A stretch of DNA of 50,354 nucleotides from Enterobacteria phage vB_EcoS_IME18 (MH051911), one strand, 5' to 3'. Counted from the stretch's first letter, positions 1 through 35,265 are shown. The notes: a model not told the origin generated them from the letters alone. A program made the numbers and translations.

Positions 1-151
1 CTTTTACACCATCAACTATGCCGACAACCTGAACCGCCGCGCCGAACTCAATGTCACCTTGAGCCACACAAGCGCCATCAATATTGTAGGTTGAAGTATC
101 AGAAAGATTTCCCGGACACGCCGGGCGCAACATTAAATTTTCGTAAGCCAT
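1..151 (-). CDS. gpD-like head decoration protein with C-terminal Ig-like domain, 5' portion; continues at 49738..50354 across the window junction
   Basis: ATG at 149-151 with SD GGAGAAA; frame open to position 1; N-terminus paralogous to 213..689 product; joins in frame with ORF at window end. Confidence 0.55.
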   Translation of the reverse strand, partial: MAYENLMLRPACPGNLSDTSTYNIDGACVAQGDIEFGAAVQVVGIVDGVK

Positions 152-164
152 AATGATTTCTCCA

Positions 165-196
165 TAAAAAAAGGACTATCCAAAAAAGGATAGTCC
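165..196 (-). terminator. intrinsic terminator, hairpin GGACTATCC/GGATAGTCC plus U-run on minus strand
   Basis: 9-bp inverted repeat 173-181/188-196, A8 run 165-172 (U-run on minus transcript); sits between 213..689 gene and next RBS. Confidence 0.6.
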
Positions 197-212
197 CCAT
201 ATTAAACGCTAA

Positions 213-689
213 TTACAGTTGATGCAACTGAACCTCAACAAGCTGAATATCTTTGTATTTAGTCCAGCCGCCAGCGTAGGTCCAGGTTGTTTCGATCGTG
301 CCATCAGATTTCTCTTGACCATCAACATCAAGTTTAACGGCAGAGCCGAAAGTTGGTGCTTCGGTGGATTTGGAAAGCATCCATACTCGGCCTGAAGTCA
401 TCACGTTGATAGCGCCGCCATCTTCGTAAATCATCTGATTTTGAGCGTTAACAGTCTGCCAGTGAGATCGGATTGCCACGCCGTAAGGAGTGGTTCCGGT
501 AGTAAGAGCCTTAACCAACTTATGACCATCAACCGCCTGAGCTTGAACAACTTGTACGGCAGCGCCAACAAGAACATCACCTTCATTAACGACACAAGCG
601 CCGTCAATATTGTACTTTGAAGTATCCGCAACCATACCCGGAAGCGCAATCGCCATATCTCGCTGATAAGATGCATTAATTTGTGCCAT
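213..689 (-). CDS. putative head decoration protein (lambda gpD-like position), paralog of junction gene
   Basis: ORF with SD AAGGAGAAA; located between scaffold and major capsid genes as gpD is in lambda; shares TPYG...SGRVW motifs with junction ORF. Confidence 0.55.
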   Translation of the reverse strand: MAQINASYQRDMAIALPGMVADTSKYNIDGACVVNEGDVLVGAAVQVVQAQAVDGHKLVKALTTGTTPYGVAIRSHWQTVNAQNQMIYEDGGAINVMTSGRVWMLSKSTEAPTFGSAVKLDVDGQEKSDGTIETTWTYAGGWTKYKDIQLVEVQLHQL

Positions 690-700
690 GATATTTCTCC

Positions 701-1813
701 TTACATTACTTTGCTTAAACGTGAATTTGGCGTAACAGGAGCGGCGTCGTTTTTCTCTTCCGGCTTGCCACCTTCGATAGAGTCGCCTTTTACTGCTTTA
801 CGCTGAATAGCCATGATATCAGAATCTTTAGCAACATCAAACATAGCGTCGATATATGCGTCTGATTTTTCGCTAACATCTTTATCAAGCATGGCTTTAA
901 CTACGGCAATCTTGACGTCTTTGATATCAAGACCATCATGTTTGACACCTGCGGTTTCTGCTACTGCGGTAACTTCTGCGCGTGCGGCGGCATCAGCTTT
1001 TTGCTTCTCTACTTCAGCCTTCACAAGTTCCGGCAGAGAGTCAACCTTAACCTTCAGCGCGTCGCGTTCAGCTTCGAAGCCATCAGCCTTGCCCTGAATG
1101 GTGGCAATCTGTGCGGTTAATTTTTCGATGTGGTTCGCAACGTCTTCGGTTACTTCCACATCAACGGAGTCGATCTTGATTTTTTTCATTTGCTTGTCCT
1201 CGTTAGTTGATTGAACGTTATTATAATACGGAAATTCCTGTTCAGCATCAAGGTTTAATTTAGCAATTCCAGCACGACCCTTGAAAACTAGTGCGATATG
1301 GTTGACCTTGATATTAGTCTGTACCGCGTCAAATTTCACCCAGCCTTCCGGCGGCGCTTCGTCCTGTTTCATATCCTCTTCGAAGATATATTCTCCAGTC
1401 TCATTTGAACCCCAGCCGGGCTTATCAATATCTACCGACGTATACCCTACAGATAATTCCCCGGCCTCCTTCGCTTTAGCCTTGCTGATCGCGTAGTCGC
1501 TGTAAATACTCAAAGGAACTTCAACGCCAACCCCTGAAGCAATACCAGCGCCAGCACACGATCCGACAACAACGTCCTTAGCATTTTGGGGAGTCACCGT
1601 TACGTGACCGACTGTGATCGGCTTGCCTGCAAAACTTTGCAAGGATTCTTGCTTGAAAACTTCGGACGCCGGACGGAACTCAACTCTATCGCCGTGCGGC
1701 GTTTTGTAAACCTGAGCGCCGATTCGCGCCACGATTGGGCGGTCAACTAAAAAACCGTTATCATCAAAGTGCGCCTTGATTTTTACTGAATCGAATCTTT
1801 GCTTTGCCTTCAT
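701..1813 (-). CDS. putative prohead protease/scaffolding protein
   Basis: Start reassigned to ATG 1811-1813 with SD AGGAG; C-terminal coiled-coil-like Ala/Glu/Lys-rich region; position between head morphogenesis and decoration genes. Confidence 0.55.
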   Translation of the reverse strand: MKAKQRFDSVKIKAHFDDNGFLVDRPIVARIGAQVYKTPHGDRVEFRPASEVFKQESLQSFAGKPITVGHVTVTPQNAKDVVVGSCAGAGIASGVGVEVPLSIYSDYAISKAKAKEAGELSVGYTSVDIDKPGWGSNETGEYIFEEDMKQDEAPPEGWVKFDAVQTNIKVNHIALVFKGRAGIAKLNLDAEQEFPYYNNVQSTNEDKQMKKIKIDSVDVEVTEDVANHIEKLTAQIATIQGKADGFEAERDALKVKVDSLPELVKAEVEKQKADAAARAEVTAVAETAGVKHDGLDIKDVKIAVVKAMLDKDVSEKSDAYIDAMFDVAKDSDIMAIQRKAVKGDSIEGGKPEEKNDAAPVTPNSRLSKVM

Positions 1814-1815
1814 TT

Positions 1816-2577
1816 TTAATCTCCTGTAGAAAAGTCTGGAACAGCCCAACAGCGGCAATTGTATTCCTCACCCGGGAATACATGATCGGAATCTACCGCT
1901 ATGCGCTTACCTTCCCATCTTACATGTTTTTCACGTTCGCGTAAATCCATCACCCCGCGCCAGAAATAGTAAGATACACCAGCGTCTTTTATGCGCTGCC
2001 GCATCAGTCTACTGTTCCATGTTCCGACAATTCCCGACGCCCTGTTTTTGGCCCAGCTTCGGTAAATACCAAATCGCTCCTTAGCCAGTTCAACAACAAA
2101 ATCCTTGCTTTTACCCTGACCGGATGCCGCACGAAGTTTATCAGTGAAATCAGTAACCATGTTGGCGGCAAATTTCCTGATAGAAGTAGTCACCTGCGAT
2201 CGCCACAGATTATATTGTCCTGAGTACCAGCTTTCGGCGGCGGTAGGACCAATCAGGGCAAGTAGCATAACGGCTTGATTCTTCTTACCTCCAGCATTGC
2301 GAGCGATACGCAGCCACTGCTTAGAGTTGAATTTATAGATCGTGAGCGCAACGGATGATAGAGAACCAATAATCGGAGCGATGAGTGATTCAACGTAATC
2401 AAGCAATGACCTTTCTGTCTGATCTATCTCTTCGTCAGTGGCGTCAAATTTCATCGGCTTTAATTCGTCACGCATTTTTTCAGTTAGTTTGGCTGCAACA
2501 TCCTGTAGGGAGCGCGACATTGCGCGCTCGCTCATTTCAGGATAGCGCCACTGTGTTGCAACGCCATTAATTTTCAT
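1816..2577 (-). CDS. head morphogenesis protein (SPP1 gp7 / Mu F-like minor head protein)
   Basis: 253-aa ORF directly after portal gene; sequence pattern typical of Mu F family (recalled, not searched). Confidence 0.65.
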   Translation of the reverse strand: MKINGVATQWRYPEMSERAMSRSLQDVAAKLTEKMRDELKPMKFDATDEEIDQTERSLLDYVESLIAPIIGSLSSVALTIYKFNSKQWLRIARNAGGKKNQAVMLLALIGPTAAESWYSGQYNLWRSQVTTSIRKFAANMVTDFTDKLRAASGQGKSKDFVVELAKERFGIYRSWAKNRASGIVGTWNSRLMRQRIKDAGVSYYFWRGVMDLREREKHVRWEGKRIAVDSDHVFPGEEYNCRCWAVPDFSTGD

Positions 2578-3850
2578 CTTCTAACTTCTCCCCTAATCCC
2601 GGTTCCGGTTCGGTTGTTTCTTCCGGTTCGCGAATGTTGATGTTATTACCATCCTTGAGTTTGAACTCAGGGGCAATGGATCGCAGCGTGTCGCGAGCTT
2701 CTTCCAGATCGATGATTTGCTCAGTGATAGCCTTCGTGACTGACTCAACGTTATTCTTCGTGATCTCTGATTCCTCTTTCTTACTCGGAACAGACAAAGG
2801 CTCAAACTCGATCGACCACTCTTCCTCATCAACAATGAACGGCAACAAGAACTCAAGAAGCGGCCTGTAGTCTTCCTCACGCTTGCGGTCGACTAGCTTA
2901 TAGAAAGTCTCAAGCGCTGTGTTTTGACTCGCTGATACGCCGCCTACGTTCTTATTCTTAATGATAATCTCATGAATCCCGGATAGTGAGACGATGCGGT
3001 CCATCTTGCTTGATAAGAACTCAGGAACTCCGCTGATATCAGAGTTGAGAACGTCATATTCCTCAGTCTCAGCATCGATACCGATCGCACGACCTACGCC
3101 GGAGTTATCATCAACCTGAGCAAGTCGCAGGCGCGCGGCATACTGAGCATCATCATCATCACACATTTCGGCAAGACCTTTGACCTTCCATACAGCCTGT
3201 TGCTTACGTCGCAAGATCTGAGTAGCAAGAGATTCACAGTAATCATAATCACAGATTGCATCAATCAGTGACTTGTTCAATACCGAAGCTCCCCATCCTT
3301 GATTCTGCTTTCTTGCCTGTTGCGTTACTCGTTCACCATCAGCAATAAAGACTCTTGAGTGATGAATCAGATACGGCTGCATATTGTCGCCAGGGGATAC
3401 CTTGTAAATTTCAGGCTCACCATAGCGAGGGGATCTTGCATTGGTGACTCGCTTTTCAATAGTGATAGCAAATCGATCGTAAACTCGGACGCCTTCAAGT
3501 TTGGCTCCAGGCTTTGCCTGACTGGTTAACATCCGGTTGTCGTTGATGATTGCCACCATCGCCGCGCCACCGTAAAGTCTCGCCCAACAAAGAAGATCCA
3601 CCAGACTTGAATCAAGTTTGTAGCTATCCCATAAAGACTTGAACTCTTTTTCATCCTTAACGCCTGACATTTTAAAACCAGCCGTCACCATCTCTTCCGG
3701 GATAACATCCACAATTCGCTTCGCGGTTGCGTTGTCGTTGTAGAAAGAACCTACGTGATATGATGCATCAGACATAAAGAATGGCTTAGGCGACCCGTCC
3801 GCGCCGCCGTTAAAGATATCGTTATATCCATCATGCTTAACAATTTTCAT
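2567..3850 (-). CDS. portal protein
   Basis: Start reassigned to ATG 3848-3850 with SD GGAGG; about 427 aa; immediately downstream of large terminase. Confidence 0.7.
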   Translation of the reverse strand: MKIVKHDGYNDIFNGGADGSPKPFFMSDASYHVGSFYNDNATAKRIVDVIPEEMVTAGFKMSGVKDEKEFKSLWDSYKLDSSLVDLLCWARLYGGAAMVAIINDNRMLTSQAKPGAKLEGVRVYDRFAITIEKRVTNARSPRYGEPEIYKVSPGDNMQPYLIHHSRVFIADGERVTQQARKQNQGWGASVLNKSLIDAICDYDYCESLATQILRRKQQAVWKVKGLAEMCDDDDAQYAARLRLAQVDDNSGVGRAIGIDAETEEYDVLNSDISGVPEFLSSKMDRIVSLSGIHEIIIKNKNVGGVSASQNTALETFYKLVDRKREEDYRPLLEFLLPFIVDEEEWSIEFEPLSVPSKKEESEITKNNVESVTKAITEQIIDLEEARDTLRSIAPEFKLKDGNNINIREPEETTEPEPGLGEKLEDEN

Positions 3851-3904: not shown

Positions 3905-5473
3905 TTACCGCTTAACCATCCCGGCGAGTCGCTTCATTCTCTCGATAGGATCATCAATGGTCAGCAATTCGATGTTCGCCGCATCCATGAAGTTATCGAC
4001 GATATCATCATGCGGGTGGGTGTCATCGTAAGTAAAGGCGCTGTGCTCAGCGATAATTTCAGCAAGCATAGGGTGCTCTTCTGGCAGAACCACACGCCCT
4101 GCTTTAATAACTGGCTGAGCATCCATAGCTCGGGTAACTTTGTCTTTGTTACGCTGCAATGGAGTGATGGATATCGGAGTCTTTTTCCTTAGGTTCTGGA
4201 TTAAGCCCGTACCGCTTGCTTTGTCTTCCACGTAGATTTTACGAAGCACGCCCATTGATTTATTGTGTCTCCATGCCTGATTCACGAAGGCGGTAAATTG
4301 TTTCTCCATATCCGGCGCTTCCCACTTACCGCGAATGCCGTCGATAAAGTAAACCTTGTCGTTTTTCTTACCCCACAAACAAAAGACTGTGTAGTCGTTT
4401 AGCTCACCTGTCTTCTGAGCGGTATCAGCGGTGATAAAACGGTAATCATATTTACCAGGATCTGGCTCGTCAGCGTCAAGGCTGCTTCCGTAATAAGTCC
4501 ACCACTCCGAGTTAAACACGGAGCCACCAAGCGCGATCGGCTTCTGTTGATACTGAGAATCAAAGGTGTACTGGTCCGCTTCGCGCAAAGCTAATAGGTC
4601 GTGCACACTTTCCTTGCTGGGCCAGAATGAATAATGCTTAACACCATCCAATTCTACATACTCAGACGACAAAACGTCGCGCTCGAAGTAAGGCTGCAAC
4701 CAGTCAGGAAGCGTCTTTCCGTATTCTTCCGTCACCAGCGCCGGGATTGAGATCTGGTCAAACTCAATACCCATCCCGCCATTCATCATGAACCATGTTG
4801 AATCCTGAGCGTGCAGTCTTTGCTGAATTGCAATAATAGGAGTCTCGTTATGCATACGACGAGATCGGATGGTGTTTTTCAATAGCATGTGCGTACGCTC
4901 ACGCTTAACCTTTGAGAACATATCATCAGGCTTGTCGATATCATCGAGCATTACCATCCCTGAGAATCCCGGCATCATGTATCCACCACGCGAACCTGTA
5001 ATTCGACCTCCAGCCGCAGCTGATATCAACTCAAACCAAACCTTTCCGTCTTCGTTAAGAACCTGCATCTCCTCGTCTTTCGATGTACCGAACTTGCAAG
5101 GCCATAGCTCTTGAAATTCGTTGCTGCTGATAATCTCACGGACGCGCTTACTGTTACGCTTAACCAAGCTGTCAGCAAACGACACGTTAAGGTTTCGCAC
5201 CTTCTTACACTTGAGCATTGCGTACACCGGAAGGTGAATTGAGAACACTTCAGTTTTACCGGAACCTGGCGTGACGTTAAAGATTGTATTCCCTCGCCGC
5301 CCTGCAATAATTTCCTCCACTTCGTGACATAGGTAAAGGTGATGCCAGTTAGGCTGGAACTGCTGCGCCTGCATAAGCTGGAACCAGATCCGAATCATTT
5401 TTTCGAAATTGGCCTCGCTCATTTTCTTGATCGCCAGCTTCTGTGTTGCGTTAAGGTCTTCCCATTGAATCAT
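3905..5473 (-). CDS. terminase large subunit
   Basis: 522 aa; P-loop-like TPGSGKT near N-terminus; SD AGGAGAA; gene order small terminase-large terminase-portal. Confidence 0.85.
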   Translation of the reverse strand: MIQWEDLNATQKLAIKKMSEANFEKMIRIWFQLMQAQQFQPNWHHLYLCHEVEEIIAGRRGNTIFNVTPGSGKTEVFSIHLPVYAMLKCKKVRNLNVSFADSLVKRNSKRVREIISSNEFQELWPCKFGTSKDEEMQVLNEDGKVWFELISAAAGGRITGSRGGYMMPGFSGMVMLDDIDKPDDMFSKVKRERTHMLLKNTIRSRRMHNETPIIAIQQRLHAQDSTWFMMNGGMGIEFDQISIPALVTEEYGKTLPDWLQPYFERDVLSSEYVELDGVKHYSFWPSKESVHDLLALREADQYTFDSQYQQKPIALGGSVFNSEWWTYYGSSLDADEPDPGKYDYRFITADTAQKTGELNDYTVFCLWGKKNDKVYFIDGIRGKWEAPDMEKQFTAFVNQAWRHNKSMGVLRKIYVEDKASGTGLIQNLRKKTPISITPLQRNKDKVTRAMDAQPVIKAGRVVLPEEHPMLAEIIAEHSAFTYDDTHPHDDIVDNFMDAANIELLTIDDPIERMKRLAGMVKR

Positions 5474-5511: not shown

Positions 5512-6036
5512 TTAAAGCATGTCAAGAATGCTATTTACTGCGTCCTTCATTGCATCCTCAGTAGTGGCTACTACTGTCGATGCGGAAGCTGACGAGTTTT
5601 CGATATTGATTGAGGCTGGCTTGTCGATTCCGAGATCCTTACCGATAAATGAGGCGTTAATAACACCGTTGGCGGCAAGCTGGAATTTTTGCTCGTTGAT
5701 TACCGATTCCACAAACTCCATAACCTCACTGTATTCTTCCTCTCGCTTCCACTTAATGATTGCGGCCTCGCTTGCACCGATGAATAGTCGGTATCCGGTC
5801 CAGGTGAAGACGCGCGGCTTATGGACAAGCGATTCATAAACGCCACCCTGAAAGCTGGCTGATTCTGACGCCTTGATTGCATTGTCCTCGGCCCATTCGA
5901 AATACTTCACTGACAGATCGAATAGTTGCTCTGGCGTCATCGCCCGGTTTTTCGCGAGTACAGTGCCAAACTTTTTCTTGTATAGCTCTTTGAAATTACC
6001 CCCCTGGACTACGGGAGCGTTCTTAGGTTCACTCAT
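5512..6036 (-). CDS. putative terminase small subunit
   Basis: Start reassigned to ATG 6034-6036 with SD GAGGA; position immediately upstream of large terminase. Confidence 0.5.
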   Translation of the reverse strand: MSEPKNAPVVQGGNFKELYKKKFGTVLAKNRAMTPEQLFDLSVKYFEWAEDNAIKASESASFQGGVYESLVHKPRVFTWTGYRLFIGASEAAIIKWKREEEYSEVMEFVESVINEQKFQLAANGVINASFIGKDLGIDKPASINIENSSASASTVVATTEDAMKDAVNSILDML

Positions 6037-6088
6037 AAATCCATCCTCTTTGTTTAACATTTAGTGCTATTTTACCATATTGCAGGCA

Positions 6089-7825: not shown

Positions 7826-7885
7826 TTCGATTTTCTCTCTTCGTTGTCGATGAGGTAACTATATCAAATCACCCCATCGACGTTT

Positions 7886-9190: not shown

Positions 9191-9258
9191 GATTTATTCC
9201 TCTGATTGGTTGCTTAACTCAATGAAGGGCATTCTATCAAATGCCCTTGAGCAAGTTT

Positions 9259-9273
9259 TAGCAATTCGTGCTA
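9259..9273 (-). promoter_or_regulatory. palindromic box TAGCA-N5-TGCTA (promoter-associated)
   Basis: TAGCAATTCGTGCTA; TAGAAT 22 nt downstream on minus strand; hairpin AAGGGCAT/ATGCCCTT in spacer. Confidence 0.6.
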
Positions 9274-11257: not shown

Positions 11258-11325
11258 AGCTGATTCCTCTGATTGGTTGCTCTGCTTCAATAAGGCCACT
11301 ATATCAAATGGCCTTGCGGAAGGTT

Positions 11326-12553: not shown

Positions 12554-12612
12554 GCTATCGTCCTCGTTCGTTGTCGATGGGGTTACTATATCGCAACCCC
12601 TGAGTTGAGTTT

Positions 12613-13681: not shown

Positions 13682-14149
13682 TTTGGTGAGATATTTCACA
13701 CGGCTTCCGGCAGTCTCATTCCAGCCATCCTCAAAGAATACGCTATAGCAAGTTGTCGAACGCTGGCGAACCTTCGACACAGTGCGCCACACTTTACGGC
13801 CCGAGTAACCAGTCAGCACACGCATCCCTGGCAACAACTCACCAGACTTTCTCACCTTAATGGCAACATCAGCATCAAGCTCGAACGACTCAAGATAGAC
13901 CGGGTTAATCATATTGCACATGCGGCGCTCTTCGTGCTCATCTGCCCACTCGCAGCCATTGTTCGTCTTGATAGCTCCAATGAAGCAACCCAGTTTTTCA
14001 GTAAGTGAGCCTGCGCGGTATGAGTTGATATCGATGACCGTGTAATGGCTATACATATGCCAGTGCAATCCGGTTTTGTGCTCAAACGCGAAGAATGACA
14101 TTTCGCCATCAACCTCATCTTTAGCCAGAAATACGGTAATTGTCGTCAT
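13679..14149 (-). CDS. hypothetical protein
   Basis: 156-aa ORF; stop TAG inside box. Confidence 0.55.
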   Translation of the reverse strand: MTTITVFLAKDEVDGEMSFFAFEHKTGLHWHMYSHYTVIDINSYRAGSLTEKLGCFIGAIKTNNGCEWADEHEERRMCNMINPVYLESFELDADVAIKVRKSGELLPGMRVLTGYSGRKVWRTVSKVRQRSTTCYSVFFEDGWNETAGSRVKYLTK

Positions 14150-14151
14150 GA

Positions 14152-14346
14152 TTAAGCCTCGGAAAAATAAGTGTTAAATCCTTTGAGTTTGTAGTCGCTG
14201 CCGACGCGCACCACGTTCCAGGTAAGACCAGAGTGATACGCAACCATATCCTCAAGGTCGATCGTGATTTCGGTTCCCTTCTTGAACAGACCCTTTTCAT
14301 GAGTTGAGTCTCGCTGAACAACCACTACGTCAATTTGCGTTTCCAT
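14152..14346 (-). CDS. hypothetical protein
   Basis: Start reassigned to ATG 14344-14346 with SD AGAGGA. Confidence 0.45.
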   Translation of the reverse strand: METQIDVVVVQRDSTHEKGLFKKGTEITIDLEDMVAYHSGLTWNVVRVGSDYKLKGFNTYFSEA

Positions 14347-14406
14347 CTTTGTTTCCTCTGTATCGTGTCGATGAAAAGATAATACCCGATCCGCTCGACC
14401 GGGATT

Positions 14407-14421
14407 TAACAAAAAGTGCTA
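14407..14421 (-). promoter_or_regulatory. palindromic box (promoter-associated)
   Basis: TAACAAAAAGTGCTA; TATTAT 22 nt downstream on minus strand. Confidence 0.55.
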
Positions 14422-14679
14422 TTTCATCAAAGTGAAGCAGCGAATTTTATTTGGCTTGAATAGGAATAGCTGGATGCCTTGCACCTTACCAAGACTTATC
14501 ATCTCTACGCCAAACTGTTTACGCACATACCGAACCAGCTCATCAGCTGGCGAACTCATCTGTAGGCCGAGTCTATAGAAGCCGACGAACCCGAATGTCT
14601 CGGGGTTAAGCTGGAATGCTTCGCCTGGATTTAGTTGCATCAATACACCTTTCAGGGCGTCATGATTAATCTTGCTCAT
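14419..14679 (-). CDS. hypothetical protein
   Basis: Start chosen at ATG 14677-14679 with SD AAGGAG spacer 8. Confidence 0.45.
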   Translation of the reverse strand: MSKINHDALKGVLMQLNPGEAFQLNPETFGFVGFYRLGLQMSSPADELVRYVRKQFGVEMISLGKVQGIQLFLFKPNKIRCFTLMK

Positions 14680-14691
14680 AACCATCTCTCC

Positions 14692-15207
14692 TTACAATCC
14701 ACATTTCTCAATATGCGCTTTCATCTGGCGCACGATCTCATTTACATCACGAACCATTAACTCGCTATCGCCCAGCTTGCTAACATCAACGTCAAACGAA
14801 TCGAGGCAATCAGTCAGGCTAACTTTCTTCCGGCTGCGGCGCTTCTTCACCGGAACCTCTTCGTCTGTAACGATAACGGTTATCATCGTGATTGCCGCGT
14901 CATTCCGGCCTACCTTCACCTTTGCCACCTTGCCATACTTACAGAAGTGCCTGGTAATGATCGGAGTGATGAAAGCGGACTTGAATCGCTTCTCTACCTC
15001 CCCCTGGTTCTGGTCCACCCATCCGGCAGCGGCAGATTCAAGATCGCTATCGCTTACCTCCTGGTCACGGAAGTAGAATCGCGCGGCTTCGAGGGCCATA
15101 TCATCAGCCACGAAAGAGAACTCATTCATGCCTTTGTCGCGATACATTGCATCGCAGGTTAGTCGAATCATATCGGTGATTTTTAATTCCTGATTGGTGT
15201 TGCTCAT
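14692..15207 (-). CDS. hypothetical protein
   Basis: 171-aa ORF, SD AGAGGG; first gene of minus-strand early block. Confidence 0.55.
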   Translation of the reverse strand: MSNTNQELKITDMIRLTCDAMYRDKGMNEFSFVADDMALEAARFYFRDQEVSDSDLESAAAGWVDQNQGEVEKRFKSAFITPIITRHFCKYGKVAKVKVGRNDAAITMITVIVTDEEVPVKKRRSRKKVSLTDCLDSFDVDVSKLGDSELMVRDVNEIVRQMKAHIEKCGL

Positions 15208-15611
15208 AATATACCCTCTTTGTCTATTCGTGTGTAAATGGTGTCATAATGTGTCAACAATTGCCATTGTGACATTGCGATGTAGAGCTGTCAATGCCTG
15301 CGAGCCAATTTTAAGCCGTGTAACATTTGTCTAGCTGTCTAGAGTCACTATAGAAATATATAGCTCTCAAAAAAGTACTGTATATATAAACATGCAGATA
15401 GAAATATGCCAACAGTACGCCAGACAATGTAAGACAACTATACACAACTATTACAATATAATTATCTATATATATAAATAAAAAAAACACTATATATATT
15501 ATATAGATACATATATCTATATGTATATTTAGAGGCGTCACAGTGTGTAATTTTGTCACAAGTGCGATTCTAGACAAATATTACATCCGTGACAAGTTAA
15601 AGTGTAATCGA

Positions 15612-15626
15612 TAGCACTTTTTGCTA
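15612..15626 (+). promoter_or_regulatory. palindromic box TAGCA-N5-TGCTA
   Basis: TAGCACTTTTTGCTA inside control region; no good -10 at +22. Confidence 0.4.
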
Positions 15627-15816
15627 AAAATGGAGATGACTACCAGGCGAACTGGGCAACACCAGATCATCCCTCTCACAATCATTGCAATCTCAGCAAC
15701 AAATCAACCAACTGTTGCACACCATGCAATAATCACGTTTCATCATTTGCAATCAATCGCAATCAGAATTATTCCACCTATTCCGATATTGATGGAATAA
15801 TGAGCAATTATTGGAA

Positions 15817-15831
15817 TAGCATTTTTTGCTA
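15817..15831 (+). promoter_or_regulatory. palindromic box (promoter-associated)
   Basis: TAGCATTTTTTGCTA with TATGGT-like hexamer about 22-23 nt downstream; upstream of 15895 gene. Confidence 0.45.
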
Positions 15832-15894
15832 ATGACTCGATCAGGTTGTCGGGGTATGGTTCTGGCCATCAACCAATCAGAAGAGGAAGCAGCA

Positions 15895-16512
15895 ATGAAG
15901 TTAATTTGGTCACTATTCGACGGTTCCGGTCTTGCGGGTCATGAACTGGCAAAGCAAGGTCACAAGGTGATGTGCTTCAACTTTGACGGAGCAGATCACG
16001 GAGATTACGCAAAGTACAATGCCCGGGTTGAGCATCCGAACATTGAGTATGTGAACGTGTTCATTGATGCAACGTTTGAGCGTGATGCGATCGCGGGTGT
16101 GTATGGCAAGCCGGATTTTATTATGGCCTTCCCTCCTTGCACTGACCTGGCTGTTAGTGGTGCTCGTCACTTTGCAAGCAAGCGTGAGCGCGATCCGTTA
16201 TTCCAGGAGAAAGCTGTTGCCACCGCTAGGATTGCTGCGAATATTGGCGACGCCCTGGGAGTGACTTACATCATTGAGAATCCGGTGAGCGTCCTGTCAT
16301 CTGCCTGGAGAAAACCAGATCACTCCTTCAATCCCTGGGAGTATGGCGGCTACCTTCCTGAGAATGACGCACATCCCTGGTTCCCGATGTATATTGCGCC
16401 GCGCGATGCTTACCCGAAGAAAACTTGTCTTTGGACCTCTGACGATTTTGTCATGCCAGAGAAAAAACCTGTAACCTGCCTGACGGGTACTCTGCACAGC
16501 ACAGCAAGCTAG
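15895..16512 (+). CDS. short C5-cytosine methyltransferase-like protein
   Basis: Start reassigned to ATG 15895 (SD AGAGGAAG); motif I-like LFDGSGLAG, PC motif FPPCTD, ENV-like IIENPVSV; only about 205 aa, no obvious target-recognition domain. Confidence 0.5.
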   Translation: MKLIWSLFDGSGLAGHELAKQGHKVMCFNFDGADHGDYAKYNARVEHPNIEYVNVFIDATFERDAIAGVYGKPDFIMAFPPCTDLAVSGARHFASKRERDPLFQEKAVATARIAANIGDALGVTYIIENPVSVLSSAWRKPDHSFNPWEYGGYLPENDAHPWFPMYIAPRDAYPKKTCLWTSDDFVMPEKKPVTCLTGTLHSTAS

Positions 16513-16582
16513 GCGGCAAGTCCGCCAAAACAAAACTGATACGATCCCTGTCGCCGCGTGGATTTTTCAAAGCGATCGCAAA

Positions 16583-16597
16583 TAGCACTTTTTGTTA
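16583..16597 (+). promoter_or_regulatory. palindromic box (promoter-associated)
   Basis: TAGCACTTTTTGTTA; CATAAT 22 nt downstream. Confidence 0.6.
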
Positions 16598-16658
16598 AAA
16601 CTCGATCTGTGCGATTTGGCATAATTACCTCATCGAAACGAGATTGAGGAAAAACAAA

Positions 16659-16844
16659 ATGGCACGTCGCATCACTAAAGACCTTAAAATTCTGAACAAA
16701 GAAAACGTAGTTAAAATCCTGGCTATTTGGGGATACAGCGAAGAGTCAGCAAAGCAGAAGGTAGAGGCTGGTTATGACCTGGCTGTCAAGGCGATGCCTA
16801 ACGACGACGCAAAAGGCATTGCAAACTATGTAGCATTCTTTTAA
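16659..16844 (+). CDS. hypothetical protein
   Basis: Start reassigned to ATG 16659 with SD GAGGA. Confidence 0.45.
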   Translation: MARRITKDLKILNKENVVKILAIWGYSEESAKQKVEAGYDLAVKAMPNDDAKGIANYVAFF

Positions 16845-16859
16845 TTAACTGGCTAACAA

Positions 16860-17045
16860 ATGAAAACGAAATTAGTGCATAAATCAGAAATCAAGATCGG
16901 CGATACTGTTATTCACAACGGAGAGCTTAGAACAGTTGGTAAGGAGTCGATAACCAAAGATGAATTTATGGGGTTATTGTTGTTCGGCGACTCCTATCGC
17001 CTGGGGTACAAATTTGTCGAGCTTGTTGAAGATGTAAAATTCTAA
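16860..17045 (+). CDS. hypothetical protein
   Basis: 61-aa ORF; stop followed directly by box. Confidence 0.4.
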   Translation: MKTKLVHKSEIKIGDTVIHNGELRTVGKESITKDEFMGLLLFGDSYRLGYKFVELVEDVKF

Positions 17046-17046
17046 A

Positions 17047-17060
17047 TAGCACTTTTGTTA
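17047..17060 (+). promoter_or_regulatory. palindromic box (promoter-associated)
   Basis: TAGCACTTTTGTTA (N4 spacer); TATAGT 22 nt downstream. Confidence 0.6.
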
Positions 17061-17119
17061 AGCGCGCACACGGGGTGGCTGGTATAGTCATCACATCAAC
17101 AGCAAACGAGGAAAGAATC

Positions 17120-17491
17120 ATGTTTAAGCAGCTCACTGACCTGGACTTCTCAGCAAGCACGGCAATACAGACTGACGAAAAAGAGCGCGTTGCGATCGAG
17201 AACATCGCGCGAAAGATTTACAACAAGCAAGAGAAAGCCGTGAGAGCCGCTCTAAGCTCTTATTACGGTGTAAGTGATGCAATGGAGTGTGTTAACCGCG
17301 TAACGCGCGTGGTGGACCGTTCTGGCGCATCTCGTTTCGTCGATAACGATACTGGCGAGACAATCATTCAGCTTAATAATCCATCTATGCGTACCGAGCT
17401 TGGCAATATTGCATTATGGGGCGTGGCTAACTACTCAATCACTGTAAACTCCTGCATTGCGGATCGTGTTAAGGAGGCATTGTATGAGTGA
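17120..17491 (+). CDS. hypothetical protein (paralog of 17698..18021)
   Basis: Start reassigned to ATG 17120 with SD GAGGA; shares AAxxxYG(V/I) region with 17698 product. Confidence 0.5.
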   Translation: MFKQLTDLDFSASTAIQTDEKERVAIENIARKIYNKQEKAVRAALSSYYGVSDAMECVNRVTRVVDRSGASRFVDNDTGETIIQLNNPSMRTELGNIALWGVANYSITVNSCIADRVKEALYE

Positions 17492-17684
17492 TAATATCTA
17501 CCGCGTGGTTGCGATCTCACGCAAGACGCAAAAGAGAGTAGTTGCCTACATGGGGAATAGCGCCATTGAAGCTACAGACGCATTCGAGCTACTGAAGAAT
17601 AACGAAGGATTTATGAACACGTTCCGAGTTAGACTTGAGCGTCTCGAACCTGTTATTATTGACGAAGCGAGAAAGCTATCCTGA
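17484..17684 (+). CDS. hypothetical protein
   Basis: Start ATG 17484 with SD AAGGAGG; overlaps previous gene end. Confidence 0.45.
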   Translation: MSDNIYRVVAISRKTQKRVVAYMGNSAIEATDAFELLKNNEGFMNTFRVRLERLEPVIIDEARKLS

Positions 17685-19180: not shown

Positions 19181-19195
19181 TAGCACTTTTTGCAA
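19181..19195 (+). promoter_or_regulatory. palindromic box (promoter-associated)
   Basis: TAGCACTTTTTGCAA; TATCAT 22 nt downstream. Confidence 0.55.
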
Positions 19196-19252
19196 AACGC
19201 GTGTACCATTGGCGGTGTATCATTTACACCGTCAACTAAGGAGTTTATTGTG

Positions 19253-20821
19253 ATGTTTAATATTAAGCCAAAACTGAATTACCAACAGATTATTGAGATC
19301 GCCAATAGCACTGGAGTTAATCCGGTGGCGATCGCAATTCGTGAAAACAGCTATGGTGACTCAGTTTCATTTTGGCAAGATCCGATCGATATCAATAACG
19401 GCAACGATAAGTTCCCTCTGATTTCGTTAGGTGGCGATAACCTGGTATTCGAATATGCAAAAGCAAAAGCTGAATCAGTCCAGTTCCCGGTTTCATCCGC
19501 GTATGCTCATTTTATCGGTTGCATCTCAGCCGCGATGCTCGGGAAGTTTTGGGTGCAATATCACGGAGAGGAACAGCCGACCGCGCTTTACATGGTAATC
19601 AGCCAGCCACCATCAACAGGTAAGTCCGCTATTAACTCAGCGGCGATAACTCCTATGCGTGCGGAGATTCAGCGACTGAATGAAGAGCGCAAAAAGGAAC
19701 GTATTCGTTTAACCAGTCAGCTACGCCAGGTTGAGAAGGAAATCAAGAATGATCCTAAAGGAAACACGACTGCGGCACTATACGAGGACAAAGAAAAACT
19801 GGAAGAGAAGATCAAAAAGATGGCTGATATTGTTTTTGCTGTATCAGATCCTACACCTGAAGGTCTTGCGAAAGTAGCCGCTGTTCAGGGCCACTTTTCC
19901 GTAATCTCTGATGAGGCAACGGCAATCAATACATTGCTCGGCCTGACTTATGGAGGTTCAGACAAGAAGTCAAACAGTGAACTTATCCTTAAGGCGTGGG
20001 ATAAAAACCACATGGAGGTAGCGCGTTCCAACCAGGACAACAACTTGTCTCTTTGCCCGGTTGGCTCGATCTGCGTAATTGCGCAGGATGAAACAATCAA
20101 AGGTATCATGGACGCAGGCCAACGAGGTATCGGTGTATCTGAGCGCTTCCTGTTAGTTCGCGAGGAACCGCTTTTAGGTACTCGTATTCTTTGTGATGAA
20201 AATGGTGATGCATTGTATAAAGAAGTCGATCGAGGACTGGTTAGCAAATATTACAGACTCGTTCACAACATCATGAAGGAGGAAAACGTTGTTCTCTCTG
20301 TAAGCCGTAATGCTATGCGTGAATTAAACCTTGCGCGTCAGGCGATGGAGCCGGATTTCGCCGCAGGTGGGAAATACTCTCACTCAATGCTACGCGGTCA
20401 TCTCGGCAAGTTCGATAAGCACGCCTTGCGTATTGCTTCAGTTCTCCACACGATCAAGAATTGGGATGGTGAATCACCGAACCGTTCCAACCGTGAGATT
20501 GACCTTGAAACAATGCAGGAAGCAATCATGATCTTCAATGAGCTTTCCAGGACTTATCTGTCGTCTGCCAGCGCTGCCGGGTATGCTGGTGATGAAGCTG
20601 AATCTCGCAAGCTGATTGATGTTATCACTGAGATCGCAAAGAAGAACAAAGGGCGCGCTCCGATTCATAGCATTGTTGCAAAGTGCCGTAACGTTACGCC
20701 GTTCAACGGTCAACAGAAAGTAGCTGAGCGAATCGATAGCCTGCTGATCACGCTCGAAGAGATGAACTACACTTGCCGCATTGATGATATTGTTTTCATC
20801 AATCCTCGACTGATGGGTTAA
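19253..20821 (+). CDS. putative replication-associated ATPase (P-loop-like), function uncertain
   Basis: Start reassigned to ATG 19253 (SD AAGGAG); 522 aa; deviant Walker-A-like QPPSTGKS. Confidence 0.45.
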   Translation: MFNIKPKLNYQQIIEIANSTGVNPVAIAIRENSYGDSVSFWQDPIDINNGNDKFPLISLGGDNLVFEYAKAKAESVQFPVSSAYAHFIGCISAAMLGKFWVQYHGEEQPTALYMVISQPPSTGKSAINSAAITPMRAEIQRLNEERKKERIRLTSQLRQVEKEIKNDPKGNTTAALYEDKEKLEEKIKKMADIVFAVSDPTPEGLAKVAAVQGHFSVISDEATAINTLLGLTYGGSDKKSNSELILKAWDKNHMEVARSNQDNNLSLCPVGSICVIAQDETIKGIMDAGQRGIGVSERFLLVREEPLLGTRILCDENGDALYKEVDRGLVSKYYRLVHNIMKEENVVLSVSRNAMRELNLARQAMEPDFAAGGKYSHSMLRGHLGKFDKHALRIASVLHTIKNWDGESPNRSNREIDLETMQEAIMIFNELSRTYLSSASAAGYAGDEAESRKLIDVITEIAKKNKGRAPIHSIVAKCRNVTPFNGQQKVAERIDSLLITLEEMNYTCRIDDIVFINPRLMG

Positions 20822-20825
20822 TAAT

Positions 20826-21233
20826 ATGCTTCTTCTTTTAGATCTGTTCCGGTTCTGCGAAGGTTACGACAAATACACTCGGCAGCACATAGCGAAATTT
20901 ATATACGCCCACAAGGAAAGTGAGCGATTTGCTAAGGCTGCTGGAATGACTCGCCGTGAATTTACAAGCGCGCTATCTAAGGAGTTTTGCGCTCGTTGCG
21001 TGACTGATGGTTACTTGGATCGCAAGGATGGAGTTTACTGGTGCAAGGGAAAGATTAAGCGCCCGGTAATGATGAAGCTGATGTGTATTGATGGCTACAA
21101 CAATCGGTATACGTGGGAAATGATGCACATTGGAGAGATGAGTGATGAAGATTTGTTTGGCGAACGTAGAAACATTGATAGATCGGAACGTCGAATTGTG
21201 CGCAAGGCTCCAGCTTACGAAAGAAGAATTTGA
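20826..21233 (+). CDS. hypothetical protein
   Basis: 135-aa ORF; 3' end overlaps next ORF by about 90 nt. Confidence 0.4.
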   Translation: MLLLLDLFRFCEGYDKYTRQHIAKFIYAHKESERFAKAAGMTRREFTSALSKEFCARCVTDGYLDRKDGVYWCKGKIKRPVMMKLMCIDGYNNRYTWEMMHIGEMSDEDLFGERRNIDRSERRIVRKAPAYERRI

Positions 21234-28604: not shown

Positions 28605-28627
28605 ACACGGCATACAGTAAACGTTTT

Positions 28628-28642
28628 TAGCAAAAAGTGCTA
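28628..28642 (-). promoter_or_regulatory. palindromic box (promoter-associated, divergent)
   Basis: TAGCAAAAAGTGCTA; on minus strand TATTAT 22 nt downstream, upstream of helicase; also sits about 10 bp from RBS of plus gene 28656. Confidence 0.55.
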
Positions 28643-28655
28643 TAGGAGAATTAAG

Positions 28656-29108
28656 ATGAGTATTCAACGCATCGCGGAGTCAACTGGTGAAATCGATAAA
28701 CGTCACATCAATGGTAACAACGGAACTCGACGCGGTAAAGACAAAAAGCCACGACAGCGCTGCGGGTTCTATATTCATAAGGAAGAAACACGCGCCGGAT
28801 TGCGAGCACGACTTGATGCGCTTATCGAATATTATGGTGGCCCTGCGGCATGCGCAAAGGCACTAAAAGTAACAAATCAGACGGTGCAAGGCTGGAAAGA
28901 ACGCAACATGATTTCGTGGCAAGGCGCTGAGGCTGCACATCGCGCTTACCGCCGACAGGGGTGTAAAGGATACCGCGCATCATGGCTGAGATTCGACCTC
29001 AAGTTTGATGGTAACGGCAAGTGCCTTGAGAAGCGATGCAAGAACAAGAAATTCATGCGGGTTGTGAAGAAGGAAGATATCGGAACGACCAATAGCATTT
29101 TTAGTTAA
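28656..29108 (+). CDS. putative HTH DNA-binding regulator (Cro/YdaS-like)
   Basis: Segment GGPAACAKALKVTNQTVQGWKERNMISWQGAEAAH resembles Cro-type HTH; SD AGGAG. Confidence 0.5.
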   Translation: MSIQRIAESTGEIDKRHINGNNGTRRGKDKKPRQRCGFYIHKEETRAGLRARLDALIEYYGGPAACAKALKVTNQTVQGWKERNMISWQGAEAAHRAYRRQGCKGYRASWLRFDLKFDGNGKCLEKRCKNKKFMRVVKKEDIGTTNSIFS

Positions 29109-34510: not shown

Positions 34511-35037
34511 TGCGTTTATCTCCTTCGTTTACGATGAATCCATTATAGCCATTAACAGCGTTTAGTCAATCGAATACATGTAATTGGTGTGTAATTGCGT
34601 GTCTATATTGCTCAAGTTACAACCAGCATCAGCAGAATCAATGTCTTAAGTCGATTTTTATGCGATGTCTATTGCGTAACACTTGTAACCGCTTTTTCTT
34701 AGAAATACACAGATATCCATGAATAGAATCCCGATCGATTAAATTTTGAACATATATGATAGAAATTTGACGAATCAATCAAATCACCTGTTACACGATA
34801 GACAACTGTTACACAACAATAATTATATATATAAAGCTAAAATTAAATATTATCTATCTATATATATTATATAGAGTTTTTATCATATCTCCCTGCGGTC
34901 GGATGGGATCGATTTTGTAACGCCATCTCAAGTTACAAAAATAGACACCTGTTACACGAAAAAAATTGTAATCGAGCTATTGCAATAAAAGTAAACGCGA
35001 CATACAATGCAATCACACTAACGACGAGGACATGCAA
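34511..35037. promoter_or_regulatory. second AT-rich divergent control region, partly homologous to 15208..15894
   Basis: No ORF; shares exact 18-bp CTATATATATTATATAGA and a GACAACT(G/A)T(T/A)ACACAAC segment with region 1; repeated CACCTGTTACACGA and CTCAAGTTACAA. Confidence 0.5.
34980..35008 (+). promoter_or_regulatory. sigma70-type promoter for lipoprotein gene (-35 TTGCAA, 17 bp, -10 TACAAT)
   Basis: TTGCAA 34980-34985 and TACAAT 35003-35008, about 30 bp upstream of ATG 35038. Confidence 0.5.
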
Positions 35038-35265
35038 ATGAAAAAGTTAATCACCATTATCGCTGCGGCATTCATCCTGACTGGTTGCTCATCGATGCCT
35101 GAGCGCACTTGCACGGCAATTTATGAATCAGGCGGCGCGGAGTACTCGGTTTACGTTTTTGGATCTAAGATGCGCGGAAAGGAGATGGTATTGCGTGCTG
35201 GATACCCATTCTCCTTCAACTATGTATCAGAGAAAAACTTCAAATCTCACGATTGCTCGATATAA
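35038..35265 (+). CDS. Cor-like superinfection-exclusion lipoprotein (putative)
   Basis: 75 aa with signal MKKLITIIAAAFILTGC (lipobox LTGC); SD GAGGA; next to tail fibre/J genes where cor sits in T1/phi80-like phages. Confidence 0.45.
   Translation: MKKLITIIAAAFILTGCSSMPERTCTAIYESGGAEYSVYVFGSKMRGKEMVLRAGYPFSFNYVSEKNFKSHDCSI

Follow-up and report, generated by a model that had tools for sequence, protein, structure and literature searches.

The closest described counterpart of the DNA considered here is the left-end untranslated region of the T1 and TLS genomes. That region lies between the same flanking genes and holds an AT-rich tract, a cluster of AATCA motifs and a promoter preceded by a repeated box; this box has been reported as a 21-nt repeat in TLS, T1, Rtp and Rogue1, with its function listed as an open question in 2024 (PMC11447400). 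We examined the 687-nt non-coding gap at 15208-15894 of Enterobacteria phage vB_EcoS_IME18 (MH051911, here IME18), within a sequence of 50,354 bp (the window, i.e., the whole stretch of DNA analysed, from whose first letter positions are counted) that represents all or nearly all of the genome of a T1-like siphovirus (Drexlerviridae, Tunavirus-type). The gap is the expected homologue of the T1/TLS left-end region; what is new is its base-level anatomy and the reading of the box as a marbox. The homologous region of T1 is 78% identical over 376 nt, and the gap flanks correspond to T1p75 on one side and to T1p02/T1p03 on the other. T1 is without a methyltransferase at this position, where the first rightward gene of IME18 encodes a Dcm-type methyltransferase; its leftward promoter hexamers differ, and its operator-like motif is TTAATCG (three copies) vs the TGTGAC-type motif of IME18. 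TLS has a tandem palindrome (TAGACCAATCGGTCTA, twice) in place of the TATTCC/GGAATA array of IME18.

The pac site of SPP1 is interleaved with promoters. In the headful pac sites of P22/Sf6, SPP1 (pacL-pacC-pacR) and P1, short repeats flank the zone of the first cut and packaging runs toward the terminase and structural genes, an arrangement to which the candidate pac of IME18 would conform; IME18 likewise has a gp3-type TerS. The candidate lies about 9.6 kb upstream of terS, unlike pac sites inside or beside terS, and the 22-bp P22 pac shows no similarity to the IME18 zone beyond the AAATC-like core invoked by the TLS authors. The P1 pac has conserved GATC hexamers that IME18 is without; a P1-like, Dam-regulated pac was set aside, since the GATC motifs of the relatives (GAGATC) are replaced by GCAATC in IME18. 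As to the box, the class II promoter micF has a forward marbox at -41 and its -10 hexamer 20-21 nt beyond the 15-mer, an arrangement shared by box 2 of IME18, and marRAB (class I) carries a reversed marbox at -62 vs a reversed box 1 at -61 (15/20 identity). The mar/sox/rob regulon consists of host promoters of Enterobacteriaceae, whereas IME18 is a virulent phage with ~20 near-identical copies that would drive most of its operons, and the phage boxes are far closer to the consensus than the micF/marRAB sites (one mismatch each). Lambda ori, the T7 primary origin and T4 oriF/oriG have an AT-rich meltable tract by repeats and downstream of a promoter, as in IME18; unlike iteron or transcription-activated phage origins, the IME18 gap has no phased long iterons and no adjacent initiator gene, and it has a second copy of its tract elsewhere in the genome.

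In our reading, to which we give a probability of about 0.68, the gap is the "left-end" control region of a T1-family phage and combines four elements, all non-coding. The features of the gap, from left to right, are these:

15208-15894, no strand assigned: whole non-coding gap, 687 nt, between the gene for a 171-aa protein and the methyltransferase gene.
15251-15273, no strand assigned: near-palindrome TGTCAACAATTGCCATTGTGACA, operator-like, overlapping the P_L1 -10 and start.
15266-15294, minus strand: P_L1, predicted leftward sigma70-like promoter, TTGACA-17-(TG)CACAAT (10/12), 59-87 nt upstream of the 171-aa gene.
15340-15530, no strand assigned: AT-rich (TA)n/A8 tract, up to 86% AT; core 15450-15525 conserved at 95-97% in Tunaviruses; paralogue at ~34790-34880.
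15555-15563 and 15589-15597, no strand assigned: direct repeats GTCACAAGT and GTGACAAGT, bracketing the P_L2 start site and -35.
15567-15595, minus strand: P_L2, predicted leftward sigma70-like promoter, TTGTCA-17-TAGAAT (10/12), predicted start ~15560.
15611-15630, plus strand: box 1, with a marbox 15-mer at 15614-15628 (15/15 match), without a -10 downstream.
15628-15655, no strand assigned: AAAATGGAGATGACTACCAGGCGAAC stretch, 95-98% conserved, T1 included.
15680-15766, plus strand: AATCA/GCAATC cluster, with AATCA at 15680, 15702, 15731, 15751 and 15761; candidate pac recognition/cleavage zone.
15768-15818, no strand assigned: TATTCC twice (15770, 15779) and GGAATA twice (15794, 15813), including a 9-bp inverted repeat.
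15816-15835, plus strand: box 2, with a marbox-like 15-mer at 15819-15833 (14/15 match).
15855-15860, plus strand: TATGGT, the predicted -10 hexamer of P_R, 21 nt past the box-2 15-mer, predicted start ~15867.
15871-15894, plus strand: 5' leader, with the recurrent AACCAATCAGAAGAGGAA motif and a Shine-Dalgarno sequence before the methyltransferase ATG.

In the composite as proposed, P_L1 and P_L2 would transcribe the leftward small early genes that lead on to terS/terL, and P_R, of the box type, would drive the rightward operon from the methyltransferase to a DUF3987-type helicase. Between P_L2 and P_R, the P22-gp3-type TerS would recognise pac in the AATCA/GCAATC zone, where the first headful cut would be made; packaging would run leftward, so that the early genes would fall within the terminal redundancy. 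The operator-like TATTCC/GGAATA array abutting box 2 and the conserved AT-rich tract would also be part of the composite. A MarA/SoxS/Rob-like activator, seated on box 2 (class II) and on box 1 (class I), would switch on both outward promoters.

Stretch 14000-17500 is matched by 146 phage records at 80-95% identity, and in an alignment of 8 Tunavirus-type sequences the gap was conserved at least as well as the flanking genes. Conservation peaked at 15450-15525, 15600-15650, 15675-15750 and 15800-15825. The same pattern held against T1, which is only ~55% identical over a 2.2-kb alignment, and this argues that the gap elements are sequence-specific rather than filler. At 687 nt the gap is the largest in the genome, as the earlier note had stated (about 690 bp); the runner-up, at 34511-35031, measures 521 nt.

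The box (ATAGCAYNNNTTGNTAA) occurs 29 times in the window at no more than 2 mismatches, against 3.2 expected, and always in the orientation of the local genes; the two copies previously noticed in the gap are there, at 15611-15627 and 15816-15832. Lining up all copies gave a common module, i.e., box - 21 nt - TAnnnT - CATCGA..ACGA - Shine-Dalgarno - ATG, in which TAnnnT may read TATAGT, TATGAT or TAGAAT, often with TG before it. The marbox consensus is 5'-GCANNWWNTGNNAAA-3' (PMC12052159), also given as CAC(T/G)-7N-AAA (PMC8811837); the box fits the former at all specified positions, and the latter as well. Perfect marbox 15-mers numbered 21 in the IME18 window (0.5-0.9 expected), 19 in TLS (1.5 expected) and 13 in Webervirus RCIP0001 (0.7 expected), with TAnnnT at exactly +20 in 13, 9 and 11 cases, respectively. 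A class II marbox is defined as forward, overlapping the -35, with its centre at -36 to -55, and a class I marbox as reversed, upstream of the -35, with its centre at -56 to -85 (PMC12052159, PMC8811837). The fixed TAnnnT spacing puts each phage site at about -47 to -33 in forward orientation, and thus within the class II definition. The E. coli K-12 micF and marRAB promoters served as positive controls by the same rule: the micF marbox had a forward orientation, with its centre at -41 relative to the annotated 5' end of the RNA and with TAGAAT exactly 20 nt after the 15-mer, and the marRAB marbox (atgCCACGTTTTGCTAAAtc) was reversed, centred at -62 and identical to box 1 at 15 of 20 positions. 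Box 2 is forward and centred at -41 from the predicted P_R start, the class II geometry. Box 1 is reversed relative to P_L2 and centred at -61 from its predicted start, the class I geometry, which is kept in 7 relatives, including ISF002 (TTGACC/TACAAT) and T1 (TTGATT/TATGAT) with their different hexamers. As judged from sequence, the hitherto unexplained box of the T1 family matches a marbox in its bases and in both canonical promoter geometries. That the family box is a genuine marbox, with ~20 promoters per genome wired to host MarA/SoxS/Rob (RamA in Klebsiella) or to a phage mimic, we propose only tentatively, at somewhat short of even odds.

Two other identities were considered for the box. 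An extended -10 (TGnTAAAAT) was rejected on finding a separate TAnnnT at a fixed 20-21 nt downstream in all copies; a sigma54 site (TGGCAC-N5-TTGC) was rejected, by eye, on its spacer of 3 rather than 5 nt and on AG in place of GG. In many box modules the -10 hexamer lies in the loop of a short inverted repeat whose arms vary between copies and yet remain complementary (AAGGGCAT..ATGCCCTT and AGGGGAAT..ATTCCCCT are examples; some copies need G-T pairs), as at 9200-9260, 11270-11325, 12560-12612 and 7830-7885 (minus strand). Relatives annotate such -10-overlapping hairpins as rho-independent terminators.

Candidates for the protein that binds the box are host Rob/MarA/SoxS or an unrecognised phage factor. 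No AraC/MarA-type domain was detected among the 40 phage open reading frames (ORFs) scanned; two conserved helix-turn-helix candidates (28656-29108, Cro/YdaS-like, and 20826-21233) had no sequence relatives in the PDB; and for the 171-aa first leftward protein, considered as a cognate regulator, no fold neighbour was found. Within the library searched, no paper linked marboxes to T1-like phages. A perfect box at 28627-28643 on the minus strand, placed to drive the main helicase leftward, lies 13 nt upstream of the ATG of the Cro/YdaS-like gene (28656-29108), and this placement would suit autoregulation if the Cro/YdaS-like protein binds the box.

The earlier note had expected divergent early promoters in the gap. 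Outward promoter-like elements are predicted on both sides, but "early" was only partly right, because the box type, to which the rightward promoter belongs, drives most of the genome. SA32RD and SA30RD carry a promoter annotation on the P_L1 element; the near-palindrome at 15251-15273 is present as first described, and 3 of the 11 genomic copies of TGTGAC/GTCACA fall in the left 400 nt of the gap. The direct repeats also proved real (GTCACAAGT at 15555, GTGACAAGT at 15589) and have one further copy only in 50 kb. From its hexamer and box, P_R is the predicted promoter of the methyltransferase operon. A search of the literature for transcript maps of T1-like phages found none. A leader motif, ACCAATCAGAGGA(A), stands directly before several start codons, at 15871-15887 and in leaders at ~9210, 11275, 13615 and 18745; it holds the AATCA core of the repeat cluster.

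The TATTCC/GGAATA array covers positions -97 to -49 relative to P_R, the last of its copies running into box 2. Four of the 40 genomic copies of GGAATA/TATTCC lie here within 60 nt, the genome maximum. The 9-bp inverted repeat was rightly seen (ATTATTCCA at 15768-15776 and TGGAATAAT at 15793-15801), with one other copy genome-wide. Window 15747-15832 is matched at ~80% by more than 200 Klebsiella Webervirus records, the cross-genus block comprising the two TATTCC, the two GGAATA and box 2; Webervirus and IME18 are 40-65% identical in proteins and 63-70% in coding DNA, and Webervirus is at least as distant as TLS, which has at the position of the array a tandem perfect palindrome, AGACCAATCGGTCT, twice. 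An operator bound by a dimeric, lineage-specific regulator is a better fit to this distribution than a site for terminase.

The AT tracts reported by the earlier note are real: AT content has its genome maximum at 15434 (86% per 100 nt), some 150 nt away from the repeat cluster; Tandem Repeats Finder run on the region returned (TA)n only. The recE gap at 34511-35031 carries the same ordered motifs as the 15208-15894 gap, including an 18-nt exact match, and these two homologous gaps are the two most AT-rich spots of the genome in IME18, TLS and Webervirus. Within a genome the two tracts are alike (51 nt at 96% in Webervirus), but orthologous tracts across genera are not, and such concerted evolution argues against the tract as a unique pac signal. 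The twin tracts are compatible with paired origins, paired promoter-upstream elements, or sites for one factor.

An origin of replication had been raised as a possible function of the gap, and the region could be chiefly that, with the AT tract as the unwinding element and possibly with promoters and pac alongside; it would be fired by P_L2 transcription (as are the T7 primary origin and T4 oriF) or by an initiator bound to the nearby short repeats. We regard this as unlikely, while granting that it has points in its favour. The genome-maximal AT content sits in a tract conserved at 95-97%, P_L2 transcription is predicted to run straight into and through it, repeat clusters are near, the adjacent rightward operon includes the gene of a DUF3987-type helicase, the origin of the family is unassigned (PMC11447400), and the twin tract in the recE gap co-evolves with it, as paired origins might show. 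An AT-rich element of the unwinding type does adjoin the repeats, but the phased 17-22-bp repeats of an iteron origin, at least three in number, are absent: the repeats that the earlier note had called iteron-like are motifs of 5-9 nt at irregular spacing (22, 29, 20 and 10 nt, i.e., 10-29 nt), ~150 nt from the tract. Furthermore, no recognisable initiator gene abuts the tract; the DUF3987 helicase, the nearest candidate initiator, is 3.3 kb away, and the primase, main helicase and SSB are 11-17 kb away (primase and main helicase at 11-14 kb). The cumulative GC skew turns at the gap, but the turn coincides with the switch of coding strand and is for that reason uninformative. Readings of AATCA and TTATTCCAC as IHF (WATCARNNNNTTR) sites and DnaA boxes were discarded, no copy fitting the full consensus by eye.

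The recE gap is itself divergent and 82% AT, lying between recE (leftward) and a rightward gene at 35032-35265 for a 77-aa lipobox protein, possibly Cor-like. It has two strong sigma70-like promoters, TTGACT-16-TATAAT (34569..34542) and TTGCAA-17-TACAAT (34980-35008), and its tract co-evolves within genomes with that of the 15208-15894 gap in three genera.

For the start of packaging, we infer a recognition and first-cut zone at about 15650-15770, with packaging leftward toward terS. AATCA reaches 5 per 100 nt here (mean 0.28) and GCAATC 3 per 100 nt (mean 0.05), and the densities of AATCA, CAATC and GCAATC at 15662-15775 are genome maxima, on one strand only (8 ATC, 0 GAT). The four GCAATC repeats previously counted within about 90 bp are three exact copies (15687, 15749, 15759) and one GCAATA (15725). 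A sequence signature unique in the genome, as a pac would have, is provided by the AATCA-type densities and not by the AT-rich tract, of which there is a second copy. The genome encodes a pac-type terminase (TerS PF16677, TerL PF17289). The T1, JMPW1 and JMPW2 records open at the homologue of window 15730/15731 and the Shfl1 record at that of ~15676, and in the T1 record a repeat_region at 1..2800, leftward in the window orientation, is annotated as the terminal repeat. The pac of TLS was mapped experimentally, by a submolar 5,882-bp pac-HindIII fragment containing a 2.7-kb EcoRV piece (PMC11447400). The TLS record opens in the homologous gap, and it has a single nearby HindIII site, at 5876, and an EcoRV site at 2733, with no HindIII within 12 kb on the other side; these sites reproduce the published fragments, which places the end in this gap, to gel accuracy and about 8.8 kb upstream of terS, and sets the direction toward the small ORFs and terS. 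The end of SU57 was chosen from an abrupt read-coverage step (PMC7718038), and it lies in this zone too, with the AT-rich tract on one side and the first rightward box promoter on the other. The T1 and TLS record junctions lie inside the AATCA-type cluster and the SU57 terminus just left of its own; SU57 shares AATCATTGCAAT..C.GCAACAA and GCAATAATCA.G with the IME18 window. The packaging signal suggested at the outset thus gains support from homology to the T1, TLS and SU57 ends, and the support comes from data on relatives rather than on IME18 itself, the first cut being placed here in relatives by the TLS restriction fragments and the SU57 coverage step, with the T1 record origin carrying its 2.8-kb repeat annotation. 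On the base-level position of the T1 pac the literature search gave region-level statements only.

In the P22 gp3 family of TerS, the known pac lies within the terS gene (P22, Sf6). The TerS of IME18 belongs to this family, and the region might be purely transcriptional, with pac elsewhere, e.g., inside terS, and the records of relatives opening here by convention. The gap, as the largest between divergent blocks, would be a conventional opening point; later authors state that they orient their genomes by that of T1 (PMC13164509), the starts of records are spread over the gap, and PhageTerm was inconclusive in several studies. Against this stand the TLS restriction sites, which match the published submolar pac fragment and put an end in this gap, the SU57 end, which came from a read-coverage step, and the 2.8-kb terminal repeat of T1 annotated from this point, and we find it quite unlikely that pac lies elsewhere.

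Six Webervirus records of one project (mtp28, OX335385.1, and five sisters) open at an identical point in a repeated AT-rich element, between ...catatacttact and ATCTATATATGGGC. This common opening may represent mapped termini, an assembly break at an internal repeat, or convention. Contigs of ~1.1 kb that recur in the family of the 171-aa gene were considered as pac ends and set aside, assembly breaks at box repeats explaining them equally well; the boxes around this gene are spaced ~1.19 kb apart.

That a small protein gene or a structured non-coding RNA is concealed in the gap and causes its conservation is highly improbable: although an 88-aa (minus) and a 59-aa (plus) ORF exist in it, the conserved block is labelled as a hypothetical protein in some records of Klebsiella phages, and a short hairpin-capable stretch follows box 1, neither ORF is kept in frame or extent across relatives, a permissive E-value Rfam search of 14900-16200 gave chance snoRNA-type matches only (E > 3), and what is conserved takes the form of short DNA motifs, separated by stretches with indels. 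The earlier judgement that the gap holds no convincing ORF is in agreement with these data. The 88-aa TTG ORF at 15311..15577(-), whose product would be of I/Y/F/L low complexity, is absent in ISF002 and T1 despite conserved DNA there; the 59-aa ORF at 15621..15800(+) is interrupted in SA30RD and EF3-1, where codon 10 is an in-frame TAA, and in the Weberviruses it contains 1-nt indels.

Several observations weigh against the composite control region as we propose it. All start sites are predicted from hexamers, and the number of sigma70-scan hits in the region was not above chance (7 vs 4.4 +/- 2.4), so that P_L1 and P_L2 are supported by where they lie and by their conservation. Neither rob nor marA nor soxS proved necessary in a Keio screen of a TLS-like phage (PMC7229145); as the three activators are redundant, single knock-outs test box dependence only weakly. 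The 171-aa protein had no informative fold match. As for the packaging start, records open at scattered points of the gap (window 15647, 15676, 15700 and 15730), one Webervirus series opens at the AT tract, the exact base in TLS was assigned by resemblance to the P22 pac with gel mapping accurate to only ~100 bp (PMC11447400), and PhageTerm often fails on T1-like phages.

The gene layout around the gap was taken from ORF calls, Pfam/PHROG scans and the BASEL annotation of LeonhardEuler, and it bears out the earlier statement that the gap separates a minus-strand from a plus-strand block. The genes that matter to the argument are:

3905-5473, minus strand: TerL (PF17289 / phrog_38).
5512-6060, minus strand: TerS (PF16677 GP3_package, P22 gp3 type / phrog_606).
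14692-15207, minus strand: 171-aa leftward gene, left flank of the gap, start at 15207.
15895-16512, plus strand: Dcm-type C5-methyltransferase, right flank of the gap, ATG at 15895.
19190-20821, plus strand: DUF3987-type helicase (phrog_2373), with small ORFs between the methyltransferase and it.

Leftward of the gap come ~9 kb of small ORFs, then terS, terL, the portal and head genes and the tail genes, wrapping around the window; the main helicase, Cro-like regulator, primase, SSB and recombination genes lie at 26.5-34.5 kb. The AlphaFold model of the 171-aa protein had a pLDDT of 84, and its best fold match an E of 0.12 and a TM of ~0.2; its homologues include the T1-type 191-aa proteins, contrary to the note in one record. 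Two genes left of the gap, an 86-aa ORF at 14152-14412(-) matches Pfam PF25180, "Phage antiviral trigger protein Gp54" (E 1.7e-35). On the right, the methyltransferase of IME18 has 205 aa vs 234 aa in most relatives, and EF3-1 (3138-3350) and SA30RD (~3100-3420) have an extra gene of ~70 aa between the box-2 promoter and the methyltransferase; the gap in relatives with the extra small gene measures 845-892 nt. The DUF3987-type helicase closes the rightward operon from the gap and is a second helicase beside the 672-aa one that adjoins the primase; some records label it "putative ATPase/yfiJ".

The T1 family is a notorious laboratory contaminant and a generalised transducer. For annotation, the anatomy of the gap indicates at which point to open the genome, where pac and the terminal redundancy would start, and which genes come first, and the base-level map of the pac zone defines fragments for transduction and packaging assays. 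If Rob/MarA/SoxS or a phage mimic does drive the boxes, this would explain how the phage runs its programme without an RNA polymerase or sigma factor of its own and with very few sigma70 promoters; it would link phage development to the antibiotic- and stress-response regulators of the host, and the status of these regulators would gate the post-early programme.

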